A stretch of DNA of 54,100 nucleotides from an uncultured bacterium (GTDB lineage Bacteria > Muiribacteriota > UBA9980). How positions within the stretch are numbered: position 1 is the stretch's first letter; each line of letters starts with the position of its first letter. The DNA lies in assembly GCA_964421195.1 (NCBI GenBank), contig CAYQWL010000002.1:16801-70900 (forward strand), read 5' to 3'. Shown piece by piece: positions 681 to 33,360 of the stretch. The notes under the pieces are model-generated. The model was given only the letters and a program-made list of their open reading frames with translations, did no database searches and was not told the DNA's origin. The translations under genes were made by a program, and so were the position numbers.

Positions 681-2219
681 ATGAGTAAAAACCGGGCTAA
701 TTTTAAAATCACCTCAAAATTATTTTTTTTAATTTTATTCACCGCCGCAATTGTATTTACAGGCTGCTCAAGCGATAGCATCAACAACGCCACGCCCGCA
801 AAGGTAATTTATACCGACGCTAAAGCCATAGACGCTTCAGGCGGCTCCTTCAGTTCACCCGCGCATAAAATAGGCATAGAAATAACGCCTTCCACATTTT
901 ACCAGCAATCACAGGTAAGCCTGGAAGTGCTGGATATGCAACATTCAGACGTTCAAAAAGACGGATTTTTTTATTCACCAAACGGCGTCAATTTCACATT
1001 CGAGCCCGCTTCGCTTGACGGCATCGGCCGCGCAGCCAATTCTTCCGCTATACGTGAAATCAGGACGCGGCTGCCATATGCAGGCGTTTATAACGAAGAG
1101 CATCCTCCGCTTTTTATCGCCATGAATCAAAACGGCCTGTTTATCCCCGTGGATTATGTGACCGATACCGTTTCTGCCACATTGATCGGGCTCATCGACA
1201 CCATGGAAATAAATACGTTAATGGAAGACACTGCCGGAAAGCTCATTTTAAAATTATTCACCGCAAACCTTAACGCTACGCAAGACGCATCAGGCGCCAT
1301 ATCCGCATCAATCAAAATATTCAGCCGCGCGCACAATAAATTTGAGGCGGCGCCGATACCTTCGCTTGCCGGAAAACGAATAGCGCTCGTAGTTCACGGC
1401 ATAACCAGCAATTTAGACCAATCAAAAGCTATGGGCGAATTTTTGGCGACTTTCAAAAAAAACGGCGCCCTTTACTACGATCAGGTAATCGGTTTTGAAT
1501 ATTCATCTAACGCCCGCATTTCCGAACTCGGAGCCAGAATGGCTGCCACGGCTTATCCTCACGTCGCATCCTGCGCCCAGCTTGATATATTCGCCCACAG
1601 CATGGGCAATCTTGTAGCGCGTTACGCCATGACCACACAGAACGTCGAAAAAGTGCCAAACCGGTTAAACATGGTCAAACATTATGTGGCGCTCGGCGGG
1701 CCACACGAAGGCGTGCCGCTGGTAACTCTTTCCGGGTTTAAATTTTTCGATATGATGGCTTATATATTCGGAGTTGATACCATCTATTGCGTTTACGACT
1801 TACTTACCTATGTCGATCAGCTTGAGCCATACACCGCCTTTTTAAGAGATTTAAACGATTTTTCAAAAAACGGCGGCGTTGGCCCCGAATATAAAACCCT
1901 GCGCGTTTACTCAATGACCGGCCAGACTTATTCAAATTATAAAATGGCGGGAATCATTCCGGCCGGAAAAATATTTAATTACATGTATAAAAACGCCGTC
2001 GCAAACTCGAAAAAAACTCTGGTTTATAAAATAGATGGGATAGTCGCCGATTACAGCGCCGGCAGCACCACCCAGAAAAATCTCGAAAAGCTTTCCGAAT
2101 ACCACAAAAATACGCCGGCGGCGGCCATTATTTTCCCGGAGCTCAATCACGGCGAACTTTTCAGCAGTTTAAAATCTTTAAATCAGATAAGCGATTGGCT
2201 TAACAATTACTGGGATTAA
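681..2219 (+). CDS. Lipoprotein with C-terminal alpha/beta hydrolase (lipase/esterase-like) domain
   Basis: Lipobox-like IVFTG-C; oxyanion-type LVVHGI; nucleophile elbow AHSMG; ALGGPHEG; candidate catalytic D (DGIV) and H (NHGEL). SD-like GAGAGGA upstream. Confidence 0.8.
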   Translation: MSKNRANFKITSKLFFLILFTAAIVFTGCSSDSINNATPAKVIYTDAKAIDASGGSFSSPAHKIGIEITPSTFYQQSQVSLEVLDMQHSDVQKDGFFYSPNGVNFTFEPASLDGIGRAANSSAIREIRTRLPYAGVYNEEHPPLFIAMNQNGLFIPVDYVTDTVSATLIGLIDTMEINTLMEDTAGKLILKLFTANLNATQDASGAISASIKIFSRAHNKFEAAPIPSLAGKRIALVVHGITSNLDQSKAMGEFLATFKKNGALYYDQVIGFEYSSNARISELGARMAATAYPHVASCAQLDIFAHSMGNLVARYAMTTQNVEKVPNRLNMVKHYVALGGPHEGVPLVTLSGFKFFDMMAYIFGVDTIYCVYDLLTYVDQLEPYTAFLRDLNDFSKNGGVGPEYKTLRVYSMTGQTYSNYKMAGIIPAGKIFNYMYKNAVANSKKTLVYKIDGIVADYSAGSTTQKNLEKLSEYHKNTPAAAIIFPELNHGELFSSLKSLNQISDWLNNYWD

Positions 2220-2335
2220 AAAACATGGCGACTGCGTTTTTAATTCAAGCCGCCATATGGCTTCTTCCGACAATTAAACAATTATAGCAACCAAGCATAA
2301 AATATAAAAAATATTAAATATTAAAGGAACCCGCG

Positions 2336-3085
2336 ATGAACCGATATTTTTTTGAAATCCACAGCGGCAACGATCGTGAAGCGCCCGGCTGTGACAAATT
2401 CACGGCAAAAGCGCTTTCATATATAAAAACAAAATTAAAGCCAGGCGCGATTAACATATTAGATATAGGCTGCGGCCCCGGCGCCCAAACGCTGCAACTC
2501 GCATCGGAACTGCCAGACGCTTTTATTACGGCAATAGATACGCACCAGCCTTTCATAAACAGGCTTTCCATCACAGCTGAAAAGCGAGGATTCGCCGGCA
2601 GGATATCAGCCGTTAATATGTCGATGAACGCGATGAATTTTGCAAATGAAAATTTCGATTTAATATGGTCGGAAGGCGCCATATATAATCTGGGCTTTGA
2701 CGCCGGGCTTAAAGAATGCCGGCGGCTTTTAAAGCCGGGCGGCTTCGCTGCCATTTCAGAAGCCGCATGGCTTAAATCCAACGTCCCCGAAGAATGCAGA
2801 GAATTCTGGAGCGAATGTTATCCAGCGATGCGCACGGTAAATGAAAATATCGAGGCAATACAAAAAGCAGGATTCGAACTGATCGCTAATTTTACTCTTC
2901 CCGGCTACGCATGGCTCGACAACTACTACGCGCCGCTAAAATTGCGGGCAGCTGAAATGCTTAAAAATAACGCCGGCATCGCCGAAGCTAAAGCCGCATT
3001 CGACGCGGAAATGTATGAAATCGCCATATATGAAAAATACGGAAAATATTATGGATATGAATTTTTCGTAATACGCCGAAAATAA
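2336..3085 (+). CDS. Class I SAM-dependent methyltransferase
   Basis: ILDIGCGPG motif I, AID acidic motif, FDLIWSEGAIY, LLKPGG. Confidence 0.9.
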   Translation: MNRYFFEIHSGNDREAPGCDKFTAKALSYIKTKLKPGAINILDIGCGPGAQTLQLASELPDAFITAIDTHQPFINRLSITAEKRGFAGRISAVNMSMNAMNFANENFDLIWSEGAIYNLGFDAGLKECRRLLKPGGFAAISEAAWLKSNVPEECREFWSECYPAMRTVNENIEAIQKAGFELIANFTLPGYAWLDNYYAPLKLRAAEMLKNNAGIAEAKAAFDAEMYEIAIYEKYGKYYGYEFFVIRRK

Positions 3086-3118
3086 GCCGAAACAATGTTT
3101 CAAATTTATAATATAAAC

Positions 3119-4306
3119 TTATTCATATTTCCATACCATTATTTTATCGGAATTTTTTTTATCACGATAAGCTAAATAAGGCACTTTCTGACATACTGAA
3201 AGCGATAAATCGCAAACATCGTTCGAGCTAAAATCACGCCGTCCGATGACGCTCCAGTTTCCGGTTTCATTACTCATAACGGTTATGCGCTTTTCACTGG
3301 TATAATCACGGAACGCGACATATAAAACGCCGTTATAATCGGCAAGCGCGCAATCAGAAGCCGGTCCGTCAGAGACGCCTTCACCCGATATATTTTTCCA
3401 TACGGCGCCGTCATAAAGCATCACTTTAACACGAGAATTCGCCATACCGTCGCAATAAGCCATATACAGGCCGCCGTTAATCTGACGAAAATTAAGATAT
3501 GAAGCGTTTTCAGATGAAAATGCCTGCCCGCCTATATGTTCCCATATATCGAGAGTTTTGTTGAATTTAACGGCGCTTATTTTATTAGCGGCGGTTTTTT
3601 CAATATAAGCGGCATAAGGAACGCCGTCCAGAACGGCGAGTTTAATTTCTTTAACCTGCGAGCTGGATATGGCCGCCGCGCCAAGTTGCTTCCAATCGGC
3701 GCCATAGCGCATAAAAGCGTAAGGCCTATCAAAATTATCGCCATTACAATAAGCTACATAAAATTTATCATTGGTGTAATCAGAAATCTTAAAATCGAGA
3801 TAATTGGCTTTCTTATGCGTAAAACCGGCCGCTCCCACATATTGCCATGAACCGTTCACAAAACCGATTACGCTGATTTTATTTTCTAATGAAGACTCGG
3901 TATAAGCGCAATAAAGAACGTTTTTATATATTACAAATGAATGATATTCAGCGGCTGAAAAGCTCGCTCCGCCGTCATTCACGGTCTTCCACAAAAACCC
4001 GTCAAAACGTCCGACACTCACTTTTGAAGAATTCCCCTCATCGATAAAAGCGATATGCGGTACCAGATAATTAAAATATAAAACGGGAGCGCGGCCCGGT
4101 TTAAACATAAAATCGATATCGCCGGACATTTTCCATGAAGGCAAAGACGGTTTTTCTTCCGGCGAAGTACCGCCGCCGAAAAAATGATCGCTGGTACCGT
4201 CCGAACGGCAGCCGGCGGAACTAAATAAAAATAAAAGCAACGCCGGCAAATATATTAATAAGAAAAAAACCGCACGCATTTTAATTCTTTTTTTAAATAA
4301 AATCAT
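3119..4306 (-). CDS. Lipoprotein with about six ~48-aa repeats (probable beta-propeller)
   Basis: Hydrophobic N-terminus ending SSAG-C; repeats anchored on W-x-x-[VLI]-G ... S ... [LP]Y[VAM]A[YF]. Confidence 0.7.
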   Translation of the reverse strand: MILFKKRIKMRAVFFLLIYLPALLLFLFSSAGCRSDGTSDHFFGGGTSPEEKPSLPSWKMSGDIDFMFKPGRAPVLYFNYLVPHIAFIDEGNSSKVSVGRFDGFLWKTVNDGGASFSAAEYHSFVIYKNVLYCAYTESSLENKISVIGFVNGSWQYVGAAGFTHKKANYLDFKISDYTNDKFYVAYCNGDNFDRPYAFMRYGADWKQLGAAAISSSQVKEIKLAVLDGVPYAAYIEKTAANKISAVKFNKTLDIWEHIGGQAFSSENASYLNFRQINGGLYMAYCDGMANSRVKVMLYDGAVWKNISGEGVSDGPASDCALADYNGVLYVAFRDYTSEKRITVMSNETGNWSVIGRRDFSSNDVCDLSLSVCQKVPYLAYRDKKNSDKIMVWKYE

Positions 4307-4414
4307 ACGCAGCGCTCATTTTATTATTAGAGCCCGTCACTCCTCAATTAATCACCGAAAATTAACAACAATGGCAATATAAAGATAAAAGCATTTTACA
4401 ATATTATCATTTAA

Positions 4415-4444
4415 TTGACAAGCATTTATTATAATTATTATAAT
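4415..4444 (+). promoter_or_regulatory. Putative sigma-70 promoter for the 4726 gene
   Basis: TTGACA (4415-4420), 18-nt spacer, TATAAT (4439-4444). The region is very AT-rich, so a chance match is possible. Confidence 0.45.
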
Positions 4445-4725
4445 TTAATTATATTTTAACTATATTTTATTACAGCTTTGATTATAATTAATTTAAAAAT
4501 AAACTTTACAATTTTAACATTTTCGTTTATAATTAATTCATTAAATTAAAAATTTAATATAAGTTCCAGCCAATTTAAAGTAACAATAAACGATTAAATT
4601 AACCGGATTACATTAAAAAATAAGCTTTATTAAGCTTCATCAAGTTAAATAATCAAGTCAGGTAAATAATTAAAACAAAAATACTCATTAATTTAATCAT
4701 TATTTCAAATGGAGGTATTATCTCG

Positions 4726-5538
4726 ATGAAAAAAATTTTAATCGCCCTTGTTGTTCTATCCATGCTTTTTACCGTTAGTTCGGTTTTCGCGGCTTCAAAA
4801 GACGTAACGCAGCTTCAAAAAACGGCCGAACTCACCGCTCGCGCCGACGCGGCCGAAGACGAACCGCTTCCAGGCGATCAACTTCCGGGCGGCGAGCCTT
4901 CAGCTCCTTCGGTTCCGGTTCCTGACGATCCGTCGGCTCCTATCGATTCTAAAGTCAGCCAGTATTATTGCGTCATACCAAATGACCATGTCAAAAACTT
5001 AGAAGCTCTTTGCGCTAAATATAATGCGCCTATAAGCATTTACCGTTCATTCAACCAGCTTATAGTATTAAAAAGACTTGGCGTTCTCGTAAAAGTAGAT
5101 CCCACAAAAACATATTTCATCAAAAAACTTCGCGAAAATTATAATGCAAAACCATTAAGAAAATTATCGCTTAAAGTCAACGTATCGGTTAATTCGCTCA
5201 CCTACGGCATTAGCAAAGCGGCCGAAGCGTCGGTTAAAAACGAATTCGAACCTATCGAAGCGATACTCGAAGGCATGTTAAAAACCCCTTACGGCTATCA
5301 TAATACCATGTTTAAAACCATAGCTCTCAATTTTTCCGGCCTGCTCGATAAAGTAACCGTTAAAACCAATGATTACCTCGGCTTCGGCAAAAAACGCAAA
5401 ATATTATTCAATCCTGTCGTAACCATTGAGCTCACCGCTTTAAATATGAATGGAAAAAATAAACATGTAACCATGTTTTACAAACAATTCGCCTATAAAA
5501 CAATTAAACACGACGACAGCTATCAATGGGGCGAATAA
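4726..5538 (+). CDS. Secreted hypothetical protein with Pro/acidic linker
   Basis: GGAGG SD; Sec signal MKKILIALVVLSMLFTVSSVFA; EDEPLPGDQLPGGEPSAPSVPVPDDPSAP low-complexity segment. Confidence 0.8.
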   Translation: MKKILIALVVLSMLFTVSSVFAASKDVTQLQKTAELTARADAAEDEPLPGDQLPGGEPSAPSVPVPDDPSAPIDSKVSQYYCVIPNDHVKNLEALCAKYNAPISIYRSFNQLIVLKRLGVLVKVDPTKTYFIKKLRENYNAKPLRKLSLKVNVSVNSLTYGISKAAEASVKNEFEPIEAILEGMLKTPYGYHNTMFKTIALNFSGLLDKVTVKTNDYLGFGKKRKILFNPVVTIELTALNMNGKNKHVTMFYKQFAYKTIKHDDSYQWGE

Positions 5539-5585
5539 TAAAACCACATTTTCATAAAGAAAATCAATATAAACAATAAAATCAG

Positions 5586-5620
5586 CCGCGCATTCCGTGT
5601 TAGAATGCGCGGTTATTTAT
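5586..5620 (+). terminator. Intrinsic terminator-like hairpin after the 4726 gene
   Basis: 10-bp perfect stem CCGCGCATTC / GAATGCGCGG, 7-nt loop, followed by TTATTTAT. Confidence 0.7.
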
Positions 5621-5648
5621 AAATAAAATAAGTAATAAATAAAAAACT

Positions 5649-6548
5649 ATGAATGAAAATTACAAAATTAAATTTTTAACTCATATCCAGGCCGAAGATT
5701 TTAAAAATATGACTTACGGTCGTTATAAACCGTTTATCGCCTGGATGGATAATATTCTGGGAAAAATTTTCCCGGTGGGCCTTTATTACAAAAATCAGCC
5801 CGCGGGGTTTCTTCTGGCCCTGAATTCTTCATCTGAAAAAACGGCAGATATACTGTCGATATTCATAGAAAAACAACATCGCGGACAAAAAATAGCTATT
5901 GATATGATAAAATTTTTAATCGCCAGATGCCGCGAGGCCTCGATTAAAACTATCAGGACATTTTATTTTAGCAACCGCCCTTTCACGCCGATTATAAATA
6001 ACATTTTCAATAAATGCGAATTTTTTCCGGCCAGACCGGAAGTATTTTTCTGTAAATGCGATAAAAACATCACCAGAATGCCTTTAATAGAATATACCAA
6101 TCTGCCGGCCGGTTTTGAAACTTTTGACTGGAAAAGCATGAATTCAGAATTAAAAGAAAAGTTAAAATATGAATTGCAAAATAAAGATTGGTTCGATAAA
6201 AGGCTTTCGCCTTTTTCGCCGGAAGAAACCATAGTCGGCGGATTAAGCCTTGGACTTCGAAAAAAAAATAAAATAGCGGGATGGACTATATGCAATTATT
6301 TTAATGAAGACACGATATCATACACATCGATTTTTATAATGCCAGAATTTCAGGGCATGGCGCTCGGAATCGCCCTGCAAATGATTTCCATAAGAGCTCA
6401 TCTTCTCACGAACCTCGCCCAAAAATATCCATTCGGCATGTTCAATGTAAGATATGACAATCCAGCCCGGCTGAAAGCGGTTAAAAATAAAATAGCGAAA
6501 TACTCTATTGAACAATATGATCAGCTAATACGGGAAAAAAATCTTTAA
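5649..6548 (+). CDS. Tandem (two-domain) GNAT family acyltransferase
   Basis: Two acyl-CoA-binding motifs: SIFIEKQHRGQKIA and SIFIMPEFQGMALG. Lies directly upstream of lanM. Confidence 0.8.
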   Translation: MNENYKIKFLTHIQAEDFKNMTYGRYKPFIAWMDNILGKIFPVGLYYKNQPAGFLLALNSSSEKTADILSIFIEKQHRGQKIAIDMIKFLIARCREASIKTIRTFYFSNRPFTPIINNIFNKCEFFPARPEVFFCKCDKNITRMPLIEYTNLPAGFETFDWKSMNSELKEKLKYELQNKDWFDKRLSPFSPEETIVGGLSLGLRKKNKIAGWTICNYFNEDTISYTSIFIMPEFQGMALGIALQMISIRAHLLTNLAQKYPFGMFNVRYDNPARLKAVKNKIAKYSIEQYDQLIREKNL

Positions 6549-6589
6549 TGATAAAATGTAATTAAACATATATAATTTACAGGTCGAAC

Positions 6590-9500
6590 ATGAAAATAAG
6601 CGTTAACGACAAAAAAATGATAGCCGCAAAAGCCGCTTTTATAGAAGAACGCATATCCGGTTCCGTGATAGCGGCCGATTCAAACAATCACATAGAAAAC
6701 GTTTTGAACCGTGAAAATAACAAAAATAATATGCATTCAAAACTCATACGGCGATGGGCCGAATTAACTTCGGACGTTTTCGATGATAAAGGATTTGAAC
6801 GCCGCCTTAAATTAACATCAAAAAGCCTCGAAGCAATAAACGCCCTTACCGGCCCGGTCTTATGGAACGATGAAAAACCTTTACCAGAATGGATTTCAAC
6901 ATTAGAAGAATTTTTCAAAATTTTGCCCGCGTCTTATGATGAAATTATATCAGCGCTTCCTTCTAAATTAATGCCAGACGATTATTACGCTCCCTTTCAA
7001 CATGTCTGGGCGCCGTGGCTTTTAATATGTCGCCGGAAATTAAAACACTTCGCCGGCCGGGCTTTTAACCTTTTAAGCGTCAATGCTGAAATTTCATGGC
7101 TGCGGTATATATTAAATTCATTAAACACGGAATTCGCGCTCTGCCTCAATTCAGCCTTCGAACTTCTTAAATCTAATAATTTTATTTTTTTCAGCATGCC
7201 TCCGGCAGAATCATTTCCCGAAGGTTCTAAAACCCATTATAATAATTTTTCGAGGGTAATGCTCGAAGGCGGCTGGCTTGATTTTTTTAAAAAATACTCC
7301 GTAGCGGCCCGGCTTATATCCAATTTATGCGAATGCCAGGCGCTATATTTATCAGACGTTCTTAAAAATTACGAAAAAGACGCGGATAAAATCGAAAAAA
7401 CTTTCAACCAGAAAAGGAAGGCCGGCCGGATATCCGATTTAGAAGCCGGTCTTTCCGACTTTCACAACGGCGGAAAAAACGTCATTAAATTAAAATTTAA
7501 AAACGGACTCGCCGTTTATTACAAACCGCGCACCGGAAAAATCGACACTCTATGGGACGGAATTTTAAACTGGCTCGCGTCAAAAATAAAAAATATTAAA
7601 TTTAAAACGCCGGTTCGGCTGAATCGTCAAACGCATACCTGGGTTGAAAACATACAGGCAAACGATTTAATAAAAAAAGAAGAAACCGCGATTTTTTATT
7701 ATAAAGCCGGCGCCATATTAGCTTTAATATATGTTCTTGGCGGCACCGACTTTCATCAGGAAAATCTCATCGCCTGCGGCAGCGAACCCGTTTTAATAGA
7801 TCTTGAAACGCTATTAAGCCCGTCAGTCAAACCTTTTAATTACACAAACATGGACGATGAAGATAAAAAAAATTATCACGGCCTTGAAAGCGATTCCGTT
7901 TTAAGAACATGTATGCTGCCTCTCTGGACGGCTGTTTCAAAAAACATTTCAAGAGATTACGGCGCGCTCACGCCCGACGATGACTCTTTTTATTCGCGCA
8001 GAAAATGGCTGGATATAAACACCGATAAAATGAGACGCGGCTATATAGACCGAAAAAATACTTTTTCGCCCAACATCCCCCGGCTCAACGGAAAATATAT
8101 CGACACATTTAAATATAAAGAAAACATTATAAAAGGATTTAAAAACGCTTATAAAATAATTATGAATAACGGCGAAGAATTTTTAAACGAAACCGGACGG
8201 TTCGAAAAATTTAAAAACGCGCGCATACGTTATTTAACCAGACAATCGCAGGTATATGCCGATATGATCGACCGGCTGAGATCGCCGGCGTTAATGCGCG
8301 ACGGCGCGGCTTTTTCTATAGAATCCGAAGGTCTGGCAAAACCGTTTTTAAACTTCGCTTCCACTGAACGCATCGAAGCGCTCTGGAAATTATTCGAAGC
8401 CGAAAGAGGCGAAATTCTTTCTTTAAATATTCCATTATTCGAATTTACTTTAGACGGGCTTTCAATTTATGGGCCGTCTGGAAAAATACTGTCCGATTAT
8501 TTTTTGAAAACAGCTGTAGAACAGATTAAACGACGCACCATGAAATTGAGCGCAAAAGATCTCGAATTTCAATCAAATTTAATCGACGCTTCGTTTTTAT
8601 GCCGTTATCCAGATAAAATCAATAAAAATACTCCGGCTAAAAAGAAAAATAACAGATCCGCGATCGATCTTCCGTTGATTTCCGATAAAGAATATATTAA
8701 AACGGCTCGGTCCGCGGCCTATCAAATTGCTGAAAAAGCGGTTTATATCAAAGGAAAACCGCAATGGCTCACGCTTAAAACCGACCCGGAAAGCCGGAAA
8801 AATTTTATCGGCCCCATAGATTTAACTTTATATGAAGGCGCTTCAGGCATCGGCCTTTTTCTTTGCGCATACGAAAAACTGACGGGCGATCGAACCTATC
8901 GCACGCTCGCTATAGACTGCTTTTCAGAAATCGAAGAATTATTAAATGACCAATCAGCCGCAGTTGCGGCCGTAAAATCATCATGCGGTTACTGCGGAGG
9001 AATGCCCGGCATTTTCTGGGCGCTTTATAAATCGGGAAATTATATTCAGGACGAGCGGTTAATAGCAATGGCAAAAAAAGGCGAAAATTTATTAAACGCA
9101 AAAAACGTTAAAGATAGCGATGCGACGGATATAATCGGCGGCGCGGCAGGCGGCGCGCTTGCATTTTCAGCTTTATACGAAGCCCGCGGAAATGAACGGC
9201 TTATAGAGCTCGTTAAAATCCATGCTAAAAATTTAATTAACAAACGCTTTAAATACGATAAATGGAATTTATGGCCGTCAGACTACGCGTCAAAGCCTCT
9301 TACCGGATTCGCCCACGGCGCGGCAGGCTACGCTCTATCTTTAGCTAAAGCTTATGAACTGACCCGTATCGAAATTTTTAAAGAAGCCGCGCTCGAAGCC
9401 ATCGATTACGAAACTTCTAATTATATGCCCGAATATAATAACTGGCCGGATTTCAGACATAACCGGGCCTTAAAAACCGGAGAAACGGCTTTTATGGCCG

Positions 9501-29343: not shown

Positions 29344-29372
29344 TTGACTATAAAAAATTAAACTGGTATAAT
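29344..29372 (+). promoter_or_regulatory. Sigma-70 promoter of the riboswitch-pruA operon
   Basis: TTGACT-N17-TATAAT with extended -10 TG (29364-29365). Confidence 0.75.
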
Positions 29373-29423: not shown

Positions 29424-29530
29424 CCTTTCATTCTAAAGCATAAGCCATGAATAAAGGGCGATTTCGGAAAAATTTCCGTAATAAGGGTATGAATGGAAAC
29501 GCTCATGCCTCCCGTGTTTGGAAAGAAGAA
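29424..29530 (+). ncRNA. Moco (molybdenum/tungsten cofactor) riboswitch aptamer
   Basis: Contains the Moco-RNA 3' signature GCCTCCCGTGTTTGGAAAG (29507-29525) and a P4 stem GGGTATGA/TCATGCCT (29485-29492/29503-29510) enclosing GGAAAC. Two upstream hairpins; tupA lies downstream in the operon. Confidence 0.8.
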
Positions 29531-29643
29531 AAAGCGCGCGACCGTGTTTTTTCGACTTATGTTTTTATTCAAACTAAAAACGTTTTGTTTTGTTGCGCCT
29601 TCTTACTTTAAACACGAAAAAAATAAGAAGGGATGGTAATGTA

Positions 29644-31275
29644 ATGTTCGGATTGTTTGAAATACCAAAACCGGTCAATGAACCAATTCTCGATTATTCT
29701 AAAGGCGGAAGCGCCGTCGTGGAACTTAAAAGCAGAATCACCGAATTAAAATCAGAAACTATCGAAATACCGCTTATAATAAACGGTAAAGAAGTGCGCA
29801 CCGGAAACTTCGGCTACTGCGTATCGCCGCACGATCACGGCCGCACTCTCGCTAAATTTCACAAAGCCGGCGAAAAAGAAATAGAAGCCGCTATTTCAGC
29901 CGCTATGAACGCGAAAAAAATATGGGACACTTTTACTTATGCTGAAAGGGCCGCGATATTTATGAGAGCGGCCCATCTTCTCTCAACCTCATGGCGCGCG
30001 ACCATTAACGGCGCGACCATGCTCGGTCAGAGTAAAAATGTTTTCCAGGCCGAAATCGATGCCGCATGCGAATCTATAGATTTTTTTAATTTCAACGCTT
30101 ATAACATGGCGTGCATTTATAAAAATCAACTTGATTCGACTAAAGGCGTCTGGAATTATACGGAATACAGGCCGCTCGATGGTTTTGTATTCGCGGTAAC
30201 GCCGTTTAATTTTACGGCCATCGCGTCAAATCTAATTTCAGCCCCGGCGGTAATGGGAAATACGATTGTCTGGAAACCGGCCGTTACAGGCATTTATTCA
30301 TCTTATTTCATAATGAAACTCTTCCAGCAGGCTGGATTGCCGGACGGCGTCGTAAATATGATACCGGGTCCGGGAGCGCTCATCGGTCCCATGGTTATGA
30401 AAAATGAAAACATGGCCGGCATTCATTTTACCGGCAGTACCACGGTGTTTAACGATATGTATAAAACGGTCGGAACGAATATAGCCGGCTATAAATCTTA
30501 TCCGCGCTTAGTCGGCGAAACCGGCGGTAAAGATTTCATATTCGCCCATCCAAGCGCCGATAGAAAAGCCCTCTGTACCGCGCTTATCAGAGGCGCATTC
30601 GAATATCAGGGCCAGAAATGCTCCGCGGCTTCGAGAGCATATATCGCCGAATCGATATGGAAAGAATTAAAAGACATGCTCATATCTGAAGTTAAAACCA
30701 TAAAAATGGGCGATGTGGAAGATTTTTCAGTATTTATGGGCGCCGTCATCGATAAAAGCTCATTCGAAAATATTAAATCATATATCGAGTTCGCCAGAAA
30801 TTCTTCGGACGCCGAAATAATAGCCGGCGGCGGATGCGATATGAGCAAAGGATATTTCGTCGAACCTACCGTCATACTTACTACGAATCCAGAATTTAAA
30901 ACCATGGAAGAGGAAATATTCGGGCCTGTTTTAACCATATATGTTTATAAAGACAATGAATTCGAGAAAACTTTAAAGCTTTGCGACGAAACTTCACCTT
31001 ATGCCCTGACCGGCGCGATATTCGCCGAAGACCGCATCGCGGTCAAAAAAGCTTATGACGCTTTAAGATACAGCGCCGGCAATTTTTATATAAACGACAA
31101 ATGCAGCGGAGCGGTAGTAGGGCAGCAGCCATTCGGCGGAGCGAGAAAATCAGGTACAAATGATAAAGCCGGATCATGGCTTAATTTAGTAAGATGGACA
31201 TCGGCGCGCACCGTAAAAGAAACTTTCTGCCCGCCGCAAAATTATACTTACGATTATATGAACACATGGAGGTAA
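29644..31275 (+). CDS. pruA: Delta-1-pyrroline-5-carboxylate dehydrogenase (L-glutamate gamma-semialdehyde dehydrogenase)
   Basis: NEPILDY, QAEIDAACE, PFNFTAI, HFTGST, ETGGKDF (catalytic E), FEYQGQKCSA (catalytic C), EEIFGP, SGTNDKAG. Start set at ATG 29644; the track gives 29590. Confidence 0.95.
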   Translation: MFGLFEIPKPVNEPILDYSKGGSAVVELKSRITELKSETIEIPLIINGKEVRTGNFGYCVSPHDHGRTLAKFHKAGEKEIEAAISAAMNAKKIWDTFTYAERAAIFMRAAHLLSTSWRATINGATMLGQSKNVFQAEIDAACESIDFFNFNAYNMACIYKNQLDSTKGVWNYTEYRPLDGFVFAVTPFNFTAIASNLISAPAVMGNTIVWKPAVTGIYSSYFIMKLFQQAGLPDGVVNMIPGPGALIGPMVMKNENMAGIHFTGSTTVFNDMYKTVGTNIAGYKSYPRLVGETGGKDFIFAHPSADRKALCTALIRGAFEYQGQKCSAASRAYIAESIWKELKDMLISEVKTIKMGDVEDFSVFMGAVIDKSSFENIKSYIEFARNSSDAEIIAGGGCDMSKGYFVEPTVILTTNPEFKTMEEEIFGPVLTIYVYKDNEFEKTLKLCDETSPYALTGAIFAEDRIAVKKAYDALRYSAGNFYINDKCSGAVVGQQPFGGARKSGTNDKAGSWLNLVRWTSARTVKETFCPPQNYTYDYMNTWR

Positions 31276-31281
31276 TATAAA

Positions 31282-32394
31282 ATGCTCAATAAGTTGATTT
31301 TAATTTCAGGCGCGCTTTTACTGACAATTTCATTATATCTGATTTCCGTTACAAACACGGACAACGGTCATAGCGGAATAATAAAAATAAAAGGCGCGGT
31401 TAAAAACGAAATCAACTTAAGCTTTAATGACCTCGAAGGCATTAAATCCGCTGCAAGGCGGATAAAAATATACGACGATAAAAACGAATATCTCGGTAAT
31501 TACGAATTAGACGGCGTAGCGCTCGGCGAATTACTTTCGCTTGCGGGCGTCGCTAAAAAAACGGACGACGGCTTCGACCGCGAACTCGACATGTACGTCG
31601 TTGTGCGCGGCCGAAGCGGCCGTTCCGCGCTTTTTTCTTACGGCGAAATATTTCTCGACGCAAATTTTAATTCCGTTATTTTAACGAAAAACGCCCGTTT
31701 CATTCTTCCGGACAAACACGAAGATTTAAAGCCGTTTAATTTCAACGACCGCCTCTGGCACAAAGCGCCCGGCGCCCATAACATCGATCTTAAAAATTGC
31801 GCCGCGTGCCATAACGCAAAAGATGAAAGAAAACTTTACTTTCCTCGCGGCTACTGCGTTTATCCCACCTCCGATTCGAGCTCCGAGCGCTTTATCGAAG
31901 ACGCATACGAAATCGAAATTTGCCAGATTGCGCCGCGTGCCATAAAAATGGAAAAGCATAAGGAAAATATGTGGAGCGAATCGATAATTATTAATATTTG
32001 CGGTAAAAACAGCATGGAAATATGGACCGGCTCATTATCCACTTTCTATAAAACCCGATTCATTGAAAATACCATAGGATTGGGAAAAGGATTTCATGGT
32101 AAAAGTGAATTCGAAGGTTATAACATGGCATGCGTTTTAAATCAATTTTGCCCTCCAGCGGATTACGCCATGTCTTATTACGTCATAACCGCAGACGACG
32201 GTTACAGAAGCCTTTTTTCGGCGGCCGAAATTTTTAATTCATCAAAAGGCGCTAATTTATTTCTGGTAGATATCGAAAACGGAGCGGCTCTTAAAAAAGG
32301 CAGCGGCCGTTTTAGAGCATTCATCCGGGAAGACTTTTTTATAGATCGCTGTGTACGGGCGGTAAAAGAAATTCATTATAACCATGCGCAATAA
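31282..32394 (+). CDS. Exported protein with two molybdopterin-oxidoreductase-like domains and one CxxCH motif
   Basis: N-terminal TM/signal; GVALGELLSLAGV and ALFSYGEI in the first half; ADDGYRSLFSAAEI and DRCVRAVKEI in the second; central CAACH. The domain call is by motif resemblance only. Confidence 0.55.
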   Translation: MLNKLILISGALLLTISLYLISVTNTDNGHSGIIKIKGAVKNEINLSFNDLEGIKSAARRIKIYDDKNEYLGNYELDGVALGELLSLAGVAKKTDDGFDRELDMYVVVRGRSGRSALFSYGEIFLDANFNSVILTKNARFILPDKHEDLKPFNFNDRLWHKAPGAHNIDLKNCAACHNAKDERKLYFPRGYCVYPTSDSSSERFIEDAYEIEICQIAPRAIKMEKHKENMWSESIIINICGKNSMEIWTGSLSTFYKTRFIENTIGLGKGFHGKSEFEGYNMACVLNQFCPPADYAMSYYVITADDGYRSLFSAAEIFNSSKGANLFLVDIENGAALKKGSGRFRAFIREDFFIDRCVRAVKEIHYNHAQ

Positions 32395-32423: not shown

Positions 32424-33272
32424 ATGAAAAAAAAGAACGCCATACTTTCAATACTATTTTTATCCATGTTAATCCTGTTTTTTTGCCCGAACCGCTTTAT
32501 CGCCGCGCAGGCCGCCGGCGGCGGACTGACTGATGAAACCATAATATTAGCCACGACATACAGCGTTTTCGATACCGGTCTGTTAGACGAACTATTAAAA
32601 GAATTTAAAAGCAAAACCGGCATTTCCGTAAAACCTATCGTCGCAGGATCCGGCGAATCATTAAAACTCGGCGAACGCGGAGAATGCGATATAATTCTCG
32701 CTCATTCTCCGGCGCTCGAAGAAAAATTCATGGAAGAAAAATACGGTAAAGACCGCAAATCATTCGCCCGGAACGAATTTTATATAATAGGCCCGGAATC
32801 CGATCCGGCGGGCGTTAAAAACGCAGCCGATGTTTTTGCGGCTTTTGCCAGACTTGACAGCGCCGGCGTATTTATTTCACGCGGCGATAATTCTGGAACG
32901 CATAATCGTGAAATGTCTATATGGAAGAAAACTGGCGTTTCGAAAAAAGCAGGCTCAAATTACATAATAACGGGGCAGGGAATGGCTGAAACACTTAAAA
33001 TAGCGGATGAAAAACAGGCGTACACGCTCTGTGATTCAGCCACGTTTACCTATATGAATGAAAAGCTGACATTAAAAAAAATATACTCCGATATTAAAAA
33101 TTTATCAAATATTTACAGCGTTATTACAATAAATCCCGAAAAAAACAAACACGCAAAATACGAGCCCGCTAAAAAGTTATACGATTACATACTTTCGGCC
33201 GAAACGCTAAAATTCATAGGTGAATTTGGAAAAGAAAAATTCAATAAACCGCTTTTTAATTTAATGGAGTAA
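32424..33272 (+). CDS. tupA: Tungstate ABC transporter substrate-binding protein TupA (variant TTYS)
   Basis: LATTYSVFDTGLL, GSGESLKLGERGECD, FISRGDNSGTH, GQGM, YTLCD, NIYSVI; signal peptide; AGGAG SD. Confidence 0.88.
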   Translation: MKKKNAILSILFLSMLILFFCPNRFIAAQAAGGGLTDETIILATTYSVFDTGLLDELLKEFKSKTGISVKPIVAGSGESLKLGERGECDIILAHSPALEEKFMEEKYGKDRKSFARNEFYIIGPESDPAGVKNAADVFAAFARLDSAGVFISRGDNSGTHNREMSIWKKTGVSKKAGSNYIITGQGMAETLKIADEKQAYTLCDSATFTYMNEKLTLKKIYSDIKNLSNIYSVITINPEKNKHAKYEPAKKLYDYILSAETLKFIGEFGKEKFNKPLFNLME

Positions 33273-33306
33273 TTAACTGACGGTTTTATTTATCTAATAA
33301 TAAGGC

Positions 33307-33346
33307 TAAAATAAAAAGACGGGTTATAACCCGTCTTTTTATTTTA
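33307..33346. terminator. Bidirectional terminator (perfect 40-bp palindrome)
   Basis: TAAAATAAAAAGACGGGTTA / TAACCCGTCTTTTTATTTTA between convergent tupA and the 33801 gene. Confidence 0.85.
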
Positions 33347-33360
33347 ATTATTCAATTGTT

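Follow-up and report, generated by a model that had tools for sequence, protein, structure and literature searches.

A candidate periplasmic heme protein with two cysteine-less sulfite oxidase-type domains, encoded behind a molybdenum-cofactor riboswitch and possibly serving molybdenum or tungsten acquisition

The DNA analysed here (the window) is a stretch of 54,100 nucleotides from contig CAYQWL010000002.1 of the uncultured Muiribacteriota bacterium GCA_964421195.1. We examined the gene at 31282–32394, which lies between a dehydrogenase gene and a gene for a TupA-like tungstate-type binding protein, behind a riboswitch of the molybdenum cofactor (Moco) type. With moderate confidence we regard its product as a periplasmic heme protein that takes part in the acquisition of molybdenum or tungsten (Mo/W), here tungsten. 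This view builds on the fold of the protein, a conserved CxxCH motif, an export signal, the presence of a heme-attachment machinery, the riboswitch and neighbouring genes that are conserved among relatives.

Fold, export and heme motif of the protein

The window protein begins with MLNKLILISG and has no twin-arginine motif. The N-terminal anchor proposed in a preliminary description, made from the sequence alone, is present as a hydrophobic helix, and the strings cited there were found at residues 78–90 (GVALGELLSLAGV), 172–178 (NCAACHN) and 304–317 (ADDGYRSLFSAAEI). None of the 71 CxxCH-bearing relatives of 300–420 residues has a motif for twin-arginine translocation (Tat) of the S/T-R-R-x-F-L type, and the signal peptides of the relatives are of the Sec type throughout. 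The product is probably a Sec-exported, membrane-tethered periplasmic protein.

In the Pfam scan of the protein no dimerisation domain came up, and PF00174 stayed at 18.9 bits on residues 34–95, under its gathering cut-off of 24. Neither Pfam nor NCBIfam matched it to a cytochrome c domain family (e.g. PF00034, PF13442), and the NCBIfam scan of the 370 residues gave no match of any kind. When a library of solved structures was searched by sequence, with the protein and with a family profile, the sole match was to the heme motif of NrfA at an insignificant E of 0.86, and it was discarded. A word-index search returned only 39 relatives, comprising proteins from Wallbacteria, Riflebacteria, Ozemobacteraceae, Acidobacteriota and Holophagaceae and, in addition, four fusions of about 588 residues to a tetrapyrrole-methylase domain. 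In a profile search of 1.84 billion representatives the number of matches was 1,670 for E ≤ 1e-3 and 135 for E ≤ 1e-30. Close relatives amount to about 60 clusters and the superfamily to about 1,670 representatives at 50% identity, and the two-domain shape recurs in Atlas clusters of Bacteroidota, Pseudomonadota and Thermodesulfobacteriota. In the bacterium's own assembly of 4.29 Mb there is no second copy of this gene or of tupA, and a genome-wide search found no other PF00174 protein.

An AlphaFold model built on 23 homologues had a mean pLDDT of 84.9 and a pTM of 0.83, with confidence dropping at residues 23–30 and in the stretch 140–190. Both halves of the protein take the sulfite oxidase (SUOX) fold, in agreement with the earlier suggestion of two sulfite oxidase-like repeats around a heme motif; more precisely, the CxxCH lies in an insertion of domain 1. 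Superposition of domain 1 gave Z 16.0 with SoxC, Z 11.9 with YedY and Z 11.7 with 9a64 over residues 31–214. Domain 2 superposed on residues 140–312 of chicken sulfite oxidase with Z 15.0 and a root-mean-square deviation (rmsd) of 2.9 Å for 144 aligned residues.

Domain 2 also resembles PruR of Agrobacterium tumefaciens (Atu3496; homologues 7kom, 7kp2 and 7rkb), a periplasmic pterin-binding SUOX-fold protein (PMC11194511). PruR is a single domain of about 150–170 residues with a PW motif at the cysteine position; its partner is the cyclase/phosphodiesterase DcpA, and its pterin is sandwiched by Tyr104 and Trp160 together with Asn102 (PMC11194511). Four PruR structures were matched at Z 13–15 and rmsd 2.1–2.3 Å over nearly the whole PruR chain, among them 7kom (Z 15.1, 2.2 Å, 124 of 134 residues) and the PruR-type 7rkb (Z 14.1), and the Foldseek TM score by target was 0.77.

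At the residue level, D306-G307-Y308-R309 is invariant in domain 2 of the 23 homologues and fits the N-x-Y pattern of PruR; judged by motif position alone, Y308 is probably the counterpart of the SUOX-conserved pterin-stacking tyrosine (Y104 of PruR). The glycines of a hairpin loop (G266, G268, G270 and G273) are likewise invariant, and from the aligned ranges, rather than from a residue-level superposition, this loop would occupy the position of the loop that carries the Mo-ligand cysteine (Cys185). Domain 1 has no cysteine on its hairpin either, and it has lost the tyrosine of the DGY motif. An internal sequence repeat aligns residues 105–124 with 299–318, which excludes DDGFDR (residues 95–100) as the domain-1 counterpart of DGY. 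The only cysteine columns conserved among the homologues are C173 and C176 of the heme motif, and the Mo-ligand cysteine is therefore absent from both domains. Next in frequency come C192 (31855–31857) and C214 (31921–31923), either of which occurs in 48% of the 23 aligned homologues; a disulfide between the two, particular to a clade, may hold the heme loop against domain 1.

Known periplasmic Moco enzymes receive their cofactor in the cytoplasm and are exported by Tat, and the attachment of heme c requires Sec export of the unfolded chain. Because the Mo-ligand cysteine is absent, export is of the Sec type and PF00174 stays under its threshold, the product is not a canonical molybdoenzyme. 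Its likeness to MsrP and sulfite oxidase, put forward in the preliminary description, thus holds for the fold and fails for enzyme kinship, the cysteine-less and Sec-exported protein being nearer to PruR-type domains. The same features, together with the missing dimerisation domain, speak against a true Mo/W-cofactor enzyme, that is, a sulfite dehydrogenase or MsrP-like oxidoreductase of the periplasm that has its cytochrome c on the same chain and that the riboswitch would control as a cofactor consumer; moreover, its neighbours are transport genes and not electron acceptors. Such an enzyme would agree with the fold matches to SorA, SoxC, sulfite oxidase and YedY (Z 12–16) and with a heme c beside a SUOX domain, which recalls SorAB, and it would suit the riboswitch in two ways, since some Moco-using enzymes are preceded by Moco riboswitches and the P3-like stem seen in the window aptamer marks the class tied to Moco (PMC2408646). 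We nevertheless consider an enzyme of this kind highly unlikely.

Sec export also means that a pterin-type ligand would be met outside the cytoplasm, as is the case with PruR (PMC11194511). The protein might be a periplasmic pterin sensor of the PruR type, which would bind excreted reduced pterin and signal to a membrane partner, possibly under the control of the heme redox state. The superpositions of domain 2, the lack of the cysteine combined with Sec export, as in PruR (PMC11194511), and the invariant Y308 are all consistent with such a sensor. However, neither the window nor the loci of relatives that we examined contain a DcpA-type GGDEF-EAL gene or another fixed signalling partner, the PW motif is missing, the genes around it serve uptake, and control by a Moco riboswitch has no link to monapterin signalling, so that there is only a slim chance that the protein is a sensor.

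The residues C173, C176, H177 and H146 are invariant in the 23 homologues, which share 30–55% identity, and no further cysteine and no methionine is conserved among them. A single CxxCH was found at the same relative position in all 35 unfused proteins from the word-index search and in 44 of 46 relatives studied in their genomic context, which is far beyond what coincidence would produce. The genome encodes a System II cytochrome c synthase, in which CcsA (PF01578, 147 bits) adjoins ResB (PF05140, 85.9 + 43.8 bits) on contig C63. Both the conservation of CxxCH and a cytochrome c maturation system, which the preliminary description had named as checks of its cytochrome proposal, are thus present.

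A second line of evidence came from the 46 genomic loci of relatives, in which neighbours within 6 kb were clustered; these neighbour calls come from BLAST clustering of simply called open reading frames (ORFs), and one run-on ORF joined the dehydrogenase to the target cluster. In 14 of the loci a small CcsA-like and/or ResB-like gene clusters with a CxxCH-bearing family member (L030 at 4418–5948, L041, L043, L045–L048, L051, L054, L056, L057, L062, L063 and L067). The ResB-like protein, a membrane protein of about 260–340 residues, occurs in 14 of the 46 loci and the CcsA-like protein, of about 250 residues and with an altered Trp-rich motif, in 11, and they are usually paired. The CcsA-like protein aligns with the CcsA of the Muiribacteriota genome across the Trp-rich region (E 3e-7). 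The 258-residue membrane protein of L030 had no BLASTP match to the genome's ResB; its nearest Atlas clusters, in a language-model look-alike search only, are short ResB-like proteins, and the label ResB-like is for this protein a lead. Such a pair may be a dedicated minimal cytochrome c synthase or may handle heme in another way. Because the genome has CcsA and ResB and such small genes, usually as a pair, accompany the family in 14 loci, it is very likely, judging from sequence, that the product of 31282–32394 carries a covalent heme c. Since H146 is invariant and no other cysteine or methionine is conserved, the alignment suggests bis-His ligation of the heme by H146 and H177.

Some members of the superfamily have no heme motif. 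Among 65 heme-less members of at least 300 residues, 12 have the motif D-x-x-[ST]-G-[AS]-[ST] directly behind the signal peptide, at positions 16–41 (P0098, P0106, P0115, P0126, P0134, P0139, P0144, P0146, P0151, P0164, P0168 and P0177), and the motif was found in none of 89 CxxCH-bearing members. It resembles the flavinylation site of ApbE, [S/T]GA[S/T] (PMC11334425). In some heme-less members heme c could have been swapped for a covalent flavin mononucleotide attached by ApbE.

The operon, its riboswitch and the tungsten biology of the genome

The placement of the gene between pruA and tupA under a Moco riboswitch, as read in the preliminary description, is borne out by the model scores (773 bits for TIGR01236, 186 bits for the TupA-like protein and 76.7 bits for RF01055). 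Because a promoter-like site lies upstream, a hairpin overlaps the aptamer, the intergenic gaps are only 6 and 29 nt and a terminator-like hairpin follows tupA, and nowhere earlier between the genes, the dehydrogenase, SUOX-fold and TupA-like genes are likely to form one transcription unit in this order (Table 1). The aptamer is the sole Moco riboswitch in the assembly. The putative hairpin at its 3' end would, by analogy, work as an OFF platform like that of the E. coli moaA OFF switch (PMC2408646).

Table 1. Features of the operon and of the tandem SUOX-fold gene (coordinates in the window)
Feature	Coordinates	Strand	Basis or remarks
Sigma-70-like promoter (TTGACT, 17 nt, TATAAT, with TG)	29344..29372	+	11/12 matches, consensus scan only
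Moco/Tuco (tungsten cofactor) riboswitch aptamer RF01055	29405..29544	+	76.7 bits (gathering score 36), matched over the full model, 1-135
Terminator-like hairpin and T-run overlapping the aptamer 3' end, putative OFF expression platform	29528..29553	+	
L-glutamate gamma-semialdehyde (P5C) dehydrogenase, Aldedh family, first operon gene	29590..31275	+	TIGR01236 + PF00171
Tandem SUOX-fold monoheme cytochrome c candidate	31282..32394	+	370 aa, exported
N-terminal hydrophobic helix, residues 1-23 (model helix 2-23)	31282..31350	+	Sec signal peptide or signal anchor
Diverged SUOX-fold domain 1 (residues 31-215) with the heme loop inserted in it	31372..31926	+	Structure superposition
Inserted loop, residues 142-200, with invariant H146 and the heme motif	31705..31881	+	pLDDT 55-75
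CAACH (C173, C176, H177), a CxxCH motif for attachment of heme c	31798..31812	+	
SUOX/PruR-like domain 2, residues 222-370	31945..32391	+	Structure superposition
TupA-like tungstate-type binding protein	32424..33272	+	PF12849 113 bits; NF041772 185.7 bits
19-bp hairpin with T-runs, terminator-like, closes the operon	33306..33347	.	

The first gene encodes a P5C dehydrogenase (PF00171, 342 bits; TIGR01236, 772.9 bits against a cut-off of 613.6); the TIGR01236 match starts at residue 30, and the true start is probably the ATG at 29641. The TupA-like protein scores under the equivalog cut-off of NF041772, which is 400; it keeps RGDNSGT and has TTYS in place of the tungstate motif TTTS. The form ATTYS is common to the TupA-like proteins of all six relatives of the Wallbacteria clade (L022–L027), and in other phyla we saw the canonical TTTS (L034, L055, L057, L060) and an ATGSP variant (L041, L054, L056, L062). 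Co-folding of residues 31–370 with the TupA-like protein gave a score of 0.00, which bears neither way on binding. The order aptamer, Aldedh gene, SUOX-fold gene and TupA-like gene was also found in L022, L026, L027 and probably L023, and not in L024 and L025; in the Riflebacteria loci Aldedh genes lie within 3–5 kb.

The assembly is 91% complete. It contains two enzymes of the tungsten-type AOR family and no PF00384 molybdopterin enzyme. MoaA, MoaC and MoeA are present, and MoaE (PF02391) was not found, which may be a gap given the completeness. From MoaA, MoaC and MoeA and the AOR-family enzymes it appears that the cell makes its own pterin and that it needs the metal, depending on tungsten. 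TupB/TupC-like genes lie on contig C20, unlinked to the operon, and a Mod/Wtp-like permease with its ATPase lies on contig C303; the only receptor-like gene found in the genome is on contig C138. As the only pterin enzymes found are the two AOR-family proteins, the NAD-dependent aldehyde dehydrogenase of the operon, switched on when the cofactor is low, could be a tungsten-independent stand-in for them.

Neighbourhoods of relatives and a role in Mo/W acquisition

Genes for uptake recur beside the family. A related TonB-dependent receptor is encoded within 6 kb in 26 of the 46 loci, mostly as the gene directly upstream, and a TupA-like binding protein in 14; other recurrent neighbours are TonB, ExbD, ABC permeases and ATPases and a protein resembling amino-acid permeases. 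In each of the six Wallbacteria-clade loci, and in two loci of Acidobacteriota (L009 and L030), RF01055 precedes the family gene on its own strand; in L024 and L025 it lies about 125 nt before the SUOX-fold gene and the dehydrogenase is not in between. A single match to a thiamine pyrophosphate riboswitch was on the opposite strand of L066, about 2.3 kb from the family gene.

Three loci illustrate the arrangement. In L030 the riboswitch is followed by a TonB-dependent receptor, the CcsA-like and ResB-like genes and the family member. In L055 the receptor and the family member are followed by a small ORF, TupA (canonical TTTS, 240 bits), TupB (200 bits) and an ATPase. In L064, from Bacteroidales (1885–7020), a TonB-dependent receptor precedes a heme-less tandem SUOX lipoprotein, a WtpB-like permease (280 bits) and an ATPase; no WtpA or TupA binding protein was found in this 7-kb locus, and the heme-less SUOX module may take the role of binding protein before the permease. 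With RF01055 in two phyla, TonB-dependent receptors and neighbours of the TupA, TupB and WtpB types, the preliminary idea of a Mo/W-linked scavenging or redox cytochrome c is strengthened in its broad outline.

A mechanism can be sketched in which the protein is made together with TupA at low Mo/W cofactor, because repression by a Moco riboswitch with a terminator-type platform is then relieved. It would act between uptake through the outer membrane, by the TonB-dependent receptor in most relatives, and a TupA–TupBC or Wtp-type importer. A Mo/W species or pterin-type ligand would sit in the remnant cofactor pocket, which is best kept in domain 2, and the heme, probably bis-His ligated, would drive a one-electron step that turns the held species into an oxyanion fit for the binding protein. 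The role in acquisition is the firmer part of this scheme; the particular chemistry, a ligand in the remnant pocket and a one-electron step at the heme that yields an importable oxyanion, we consider doubtful.

The receptor is the commonest neighbour, and TonB-dependent receptors typically carry cargo too big for porins. This would favour a salvage route in which the protein catches ready-made Moco, tungsten cofactor, molybdopterin or cyclic pyranopterin monophosphate (cPMP) in the periplasm, much as BtuB/BtuF do for B12. A cofactor-holding fold without the catalytic cysteine, Sec export, by which the ligand must come from outside, the likeness of the relatives' receptors to heme and B12 receptor models and repression by Moco would all suit salvage. 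As the main explanation it was set back by MoaA, MoaC and MoeA, with which the cell would make its own pterin cofactor, the missing MoaE of the incomplete assembly notwithstanding. In addition, the inner-membrane partners (TupA/TupB, WtpB) are importers of the oxyanion type and not of cofactors, and the heme would be left with no explained role. Salvage is in our opinion unlikely.

Several observations weigh against the proposed role in Mo/W acquisition. No TonB-dependent receptor lies beside the operon in the window, and none of the Riflebacteria, Holophagae, Desulfobacterota or Bacteroidales loci in the 46-locus set has RF01055. The receptors of the relatives score best, though far under the cut-offs, against models of heme/hemoglobin and B12 receptors, and FecCD-type permeases occur in three outer-tier loci. 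Many Desulfobacterota relatives carry the module in fusion with a tetrapyrrole-methylase-like domain, a possible sign that the cargo is a tetrapyrrole. The many invariant acidic residues (D96, D103, E122, D198, D306, E316, D351 and D355) are a poorer fit for an oxyanion than for a pterin or cation. Neither a receptor nor a redox step is known to be required for small oxyanions. Finally, Moco riboswitches have also been noted in front of some enzymes that use Moco (Regulski et al. 2008, PMC2408646).

Part of these observations would be explained if the protein served the uptake of iron, heme or corrinoids by reducing or holding a tetrapyrrole or ferric chelate in the periplasm, the link to Mo/W being secondary in some lineages. 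The nearest receptor models, the FecCD-type permeases, which come with ATPases, the fused methylase-like domain and the CcsA-like proteins, which handle heme, would all be in line with it. On the other hand, every receptor score is far under its family cut-off, partners of the Mo/W type (TupA-like in 14 loci, WtpB-like in L064) outnumber those of the FecCD type in three, and the only riboswitch beside family members, in the window and eight other loci, is that for Moco. This explanation is therefore very improbable as a whole, although the tetrapyrrole hints themselves (the fusions, the heme/B12-like receptors and the CcsA-like genes) are real and unexplained.

As to the fusions themselves, the tandem SUOX module of the Desulfobacterota proteins is joined to a C-terminal tetrapyrrole-methylase domain (PF00590) with a GxGxGD-type motif (P0036–P0039, L041, L043, L045, L049, L051–L054, L056, L059, L062 and L067); the proteins have a signal peptide and mostly CxxCH. 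The fold of an S-adenosylmethionine-dependent methylase on an exported heme c protein is an odd pairing.

There is a fair chance that the family marks a new acquisition route. In the form that we would tentatively give it, which is possible rather than probable, it would be an undescribed high-affinity route for tungsten and molybdenum in anaerobes, leading from the receptor to the SUOX-fold cytochrome and then to TupA- or Wtp-type importers. The receptor would bring in a form of Mo/W, for instance a chelate, a thiometalate or a complex with pterin, that is not directly accessible to the binding protein. The cytochrome would keep this form in its recycled cofactor pocket, and its heme would free the oxyanion to the importers. 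A flavin attached by ApbE might replace the heme in some of the heme-less relatives, and in Bacteroidales the module itself may serve as the binding protein.

Comparison with known systems

The uptake of tungsten and molybdenum is thought of as simple import of oxyanions by ModABC, TupABC or WtpABC. If the proposed route exists, uptake would gain an outer-membrane step and a periplasmic step of redox or binding, which would bear on the supply of W/Mo enzymes in anaerobes of sulfidic, metal-poor habitats. It would also widen the uses of the sulfite oxidase fold beyond enzymes and the pterin sensor PruR. The only cofactor-sensing switch of this genome controls the operon, and the family offers a concrete target that can be purified. 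Literature searches found no paper on a TonB-dependent W/Mo route, on a Moco riboswitch beside a TonB-dependent receptor or on a heme-bearing relative of SUOX/PruR proteins. The parts are known (the SUOX/PruR fold, heme c, the Moco riboswitch and TupA), and the architecture and the gene cluster are undescribed in the literature searched.

With PruR the protein shares Sec export and a cysteine-less SUOX-fold domain of about 130–150 residues, which in domain 2 superposes as closely as described above. It differs in that its 370 residues form two domains with a CxxCH loop, whereas PruR is a single domain without heme; a Gly-rich loop stands at the cysteine position instead of the PW motif, and no PW is conserved; and it is encoded with transport genes under a Moco riboswitch, while the operon of PruR contains the DcpA-type GGDEF-EAL gene.

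SorAB has its Mo domain and its cytochrome on separate chains, and SorA has the Mo-ligand cysteine, a dimerisation domain and Tat export. SorAB of Starkeya novella (2blf) and SoxCD resemble the window protein in combining a SUOX-fold domain with a periplasmic c-type heme (fold Z 14–16). The window protein, in contrast, is one Sec-exported chain with two SUOX domains, without the cysteine ligand or the dimerisation domain, and its heme motif sits in an inserted loop and not in a class I cytochrome c domain. YedY/MsrP of E. coli (1xdq/1xdy) is likewise a periplasmic SUOX-fold protein (Z about 12), but it is exported by Tat, holds a cysteine-ligated Moco and is supplied with electrons by MsrQ, a heme b protein of the membrane; these features were not found here.

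FoxB is a ferric-siderophore reductase of the PepSY type that releases the metal after TonB-dependent uptake. Its structure, 7ABW, is cited in PMC11334425. The window protein may be compared with reductases of this type in the common scheme of a heme protein encoded beside a TonB-dependent receptor and an inner-membrane importer, and the analogy would be one of function only, as the folds are unrelated and FoxB has b-type membrane hemes and iron as cargo.

Genetic setting links the window protein to TupABC, WtpABC and the regulons of Moco riboswitches (PMC2408646), with which it shares a probable co-transcription with a TupA-like gene behind RF01055 and, in relatives, a place beside TupA/TupB or a WtpB-like permease; no heme protein, SUOX-fold protein or TonB-dependent receptor was found in descriptions of these systems in the literature searched. 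The recurrence of Mo/W import genes beside a cysteine-less heme protein in several phyla suggests an undescribed redox or binding step in the trace-metal acquisition of anaerobes.

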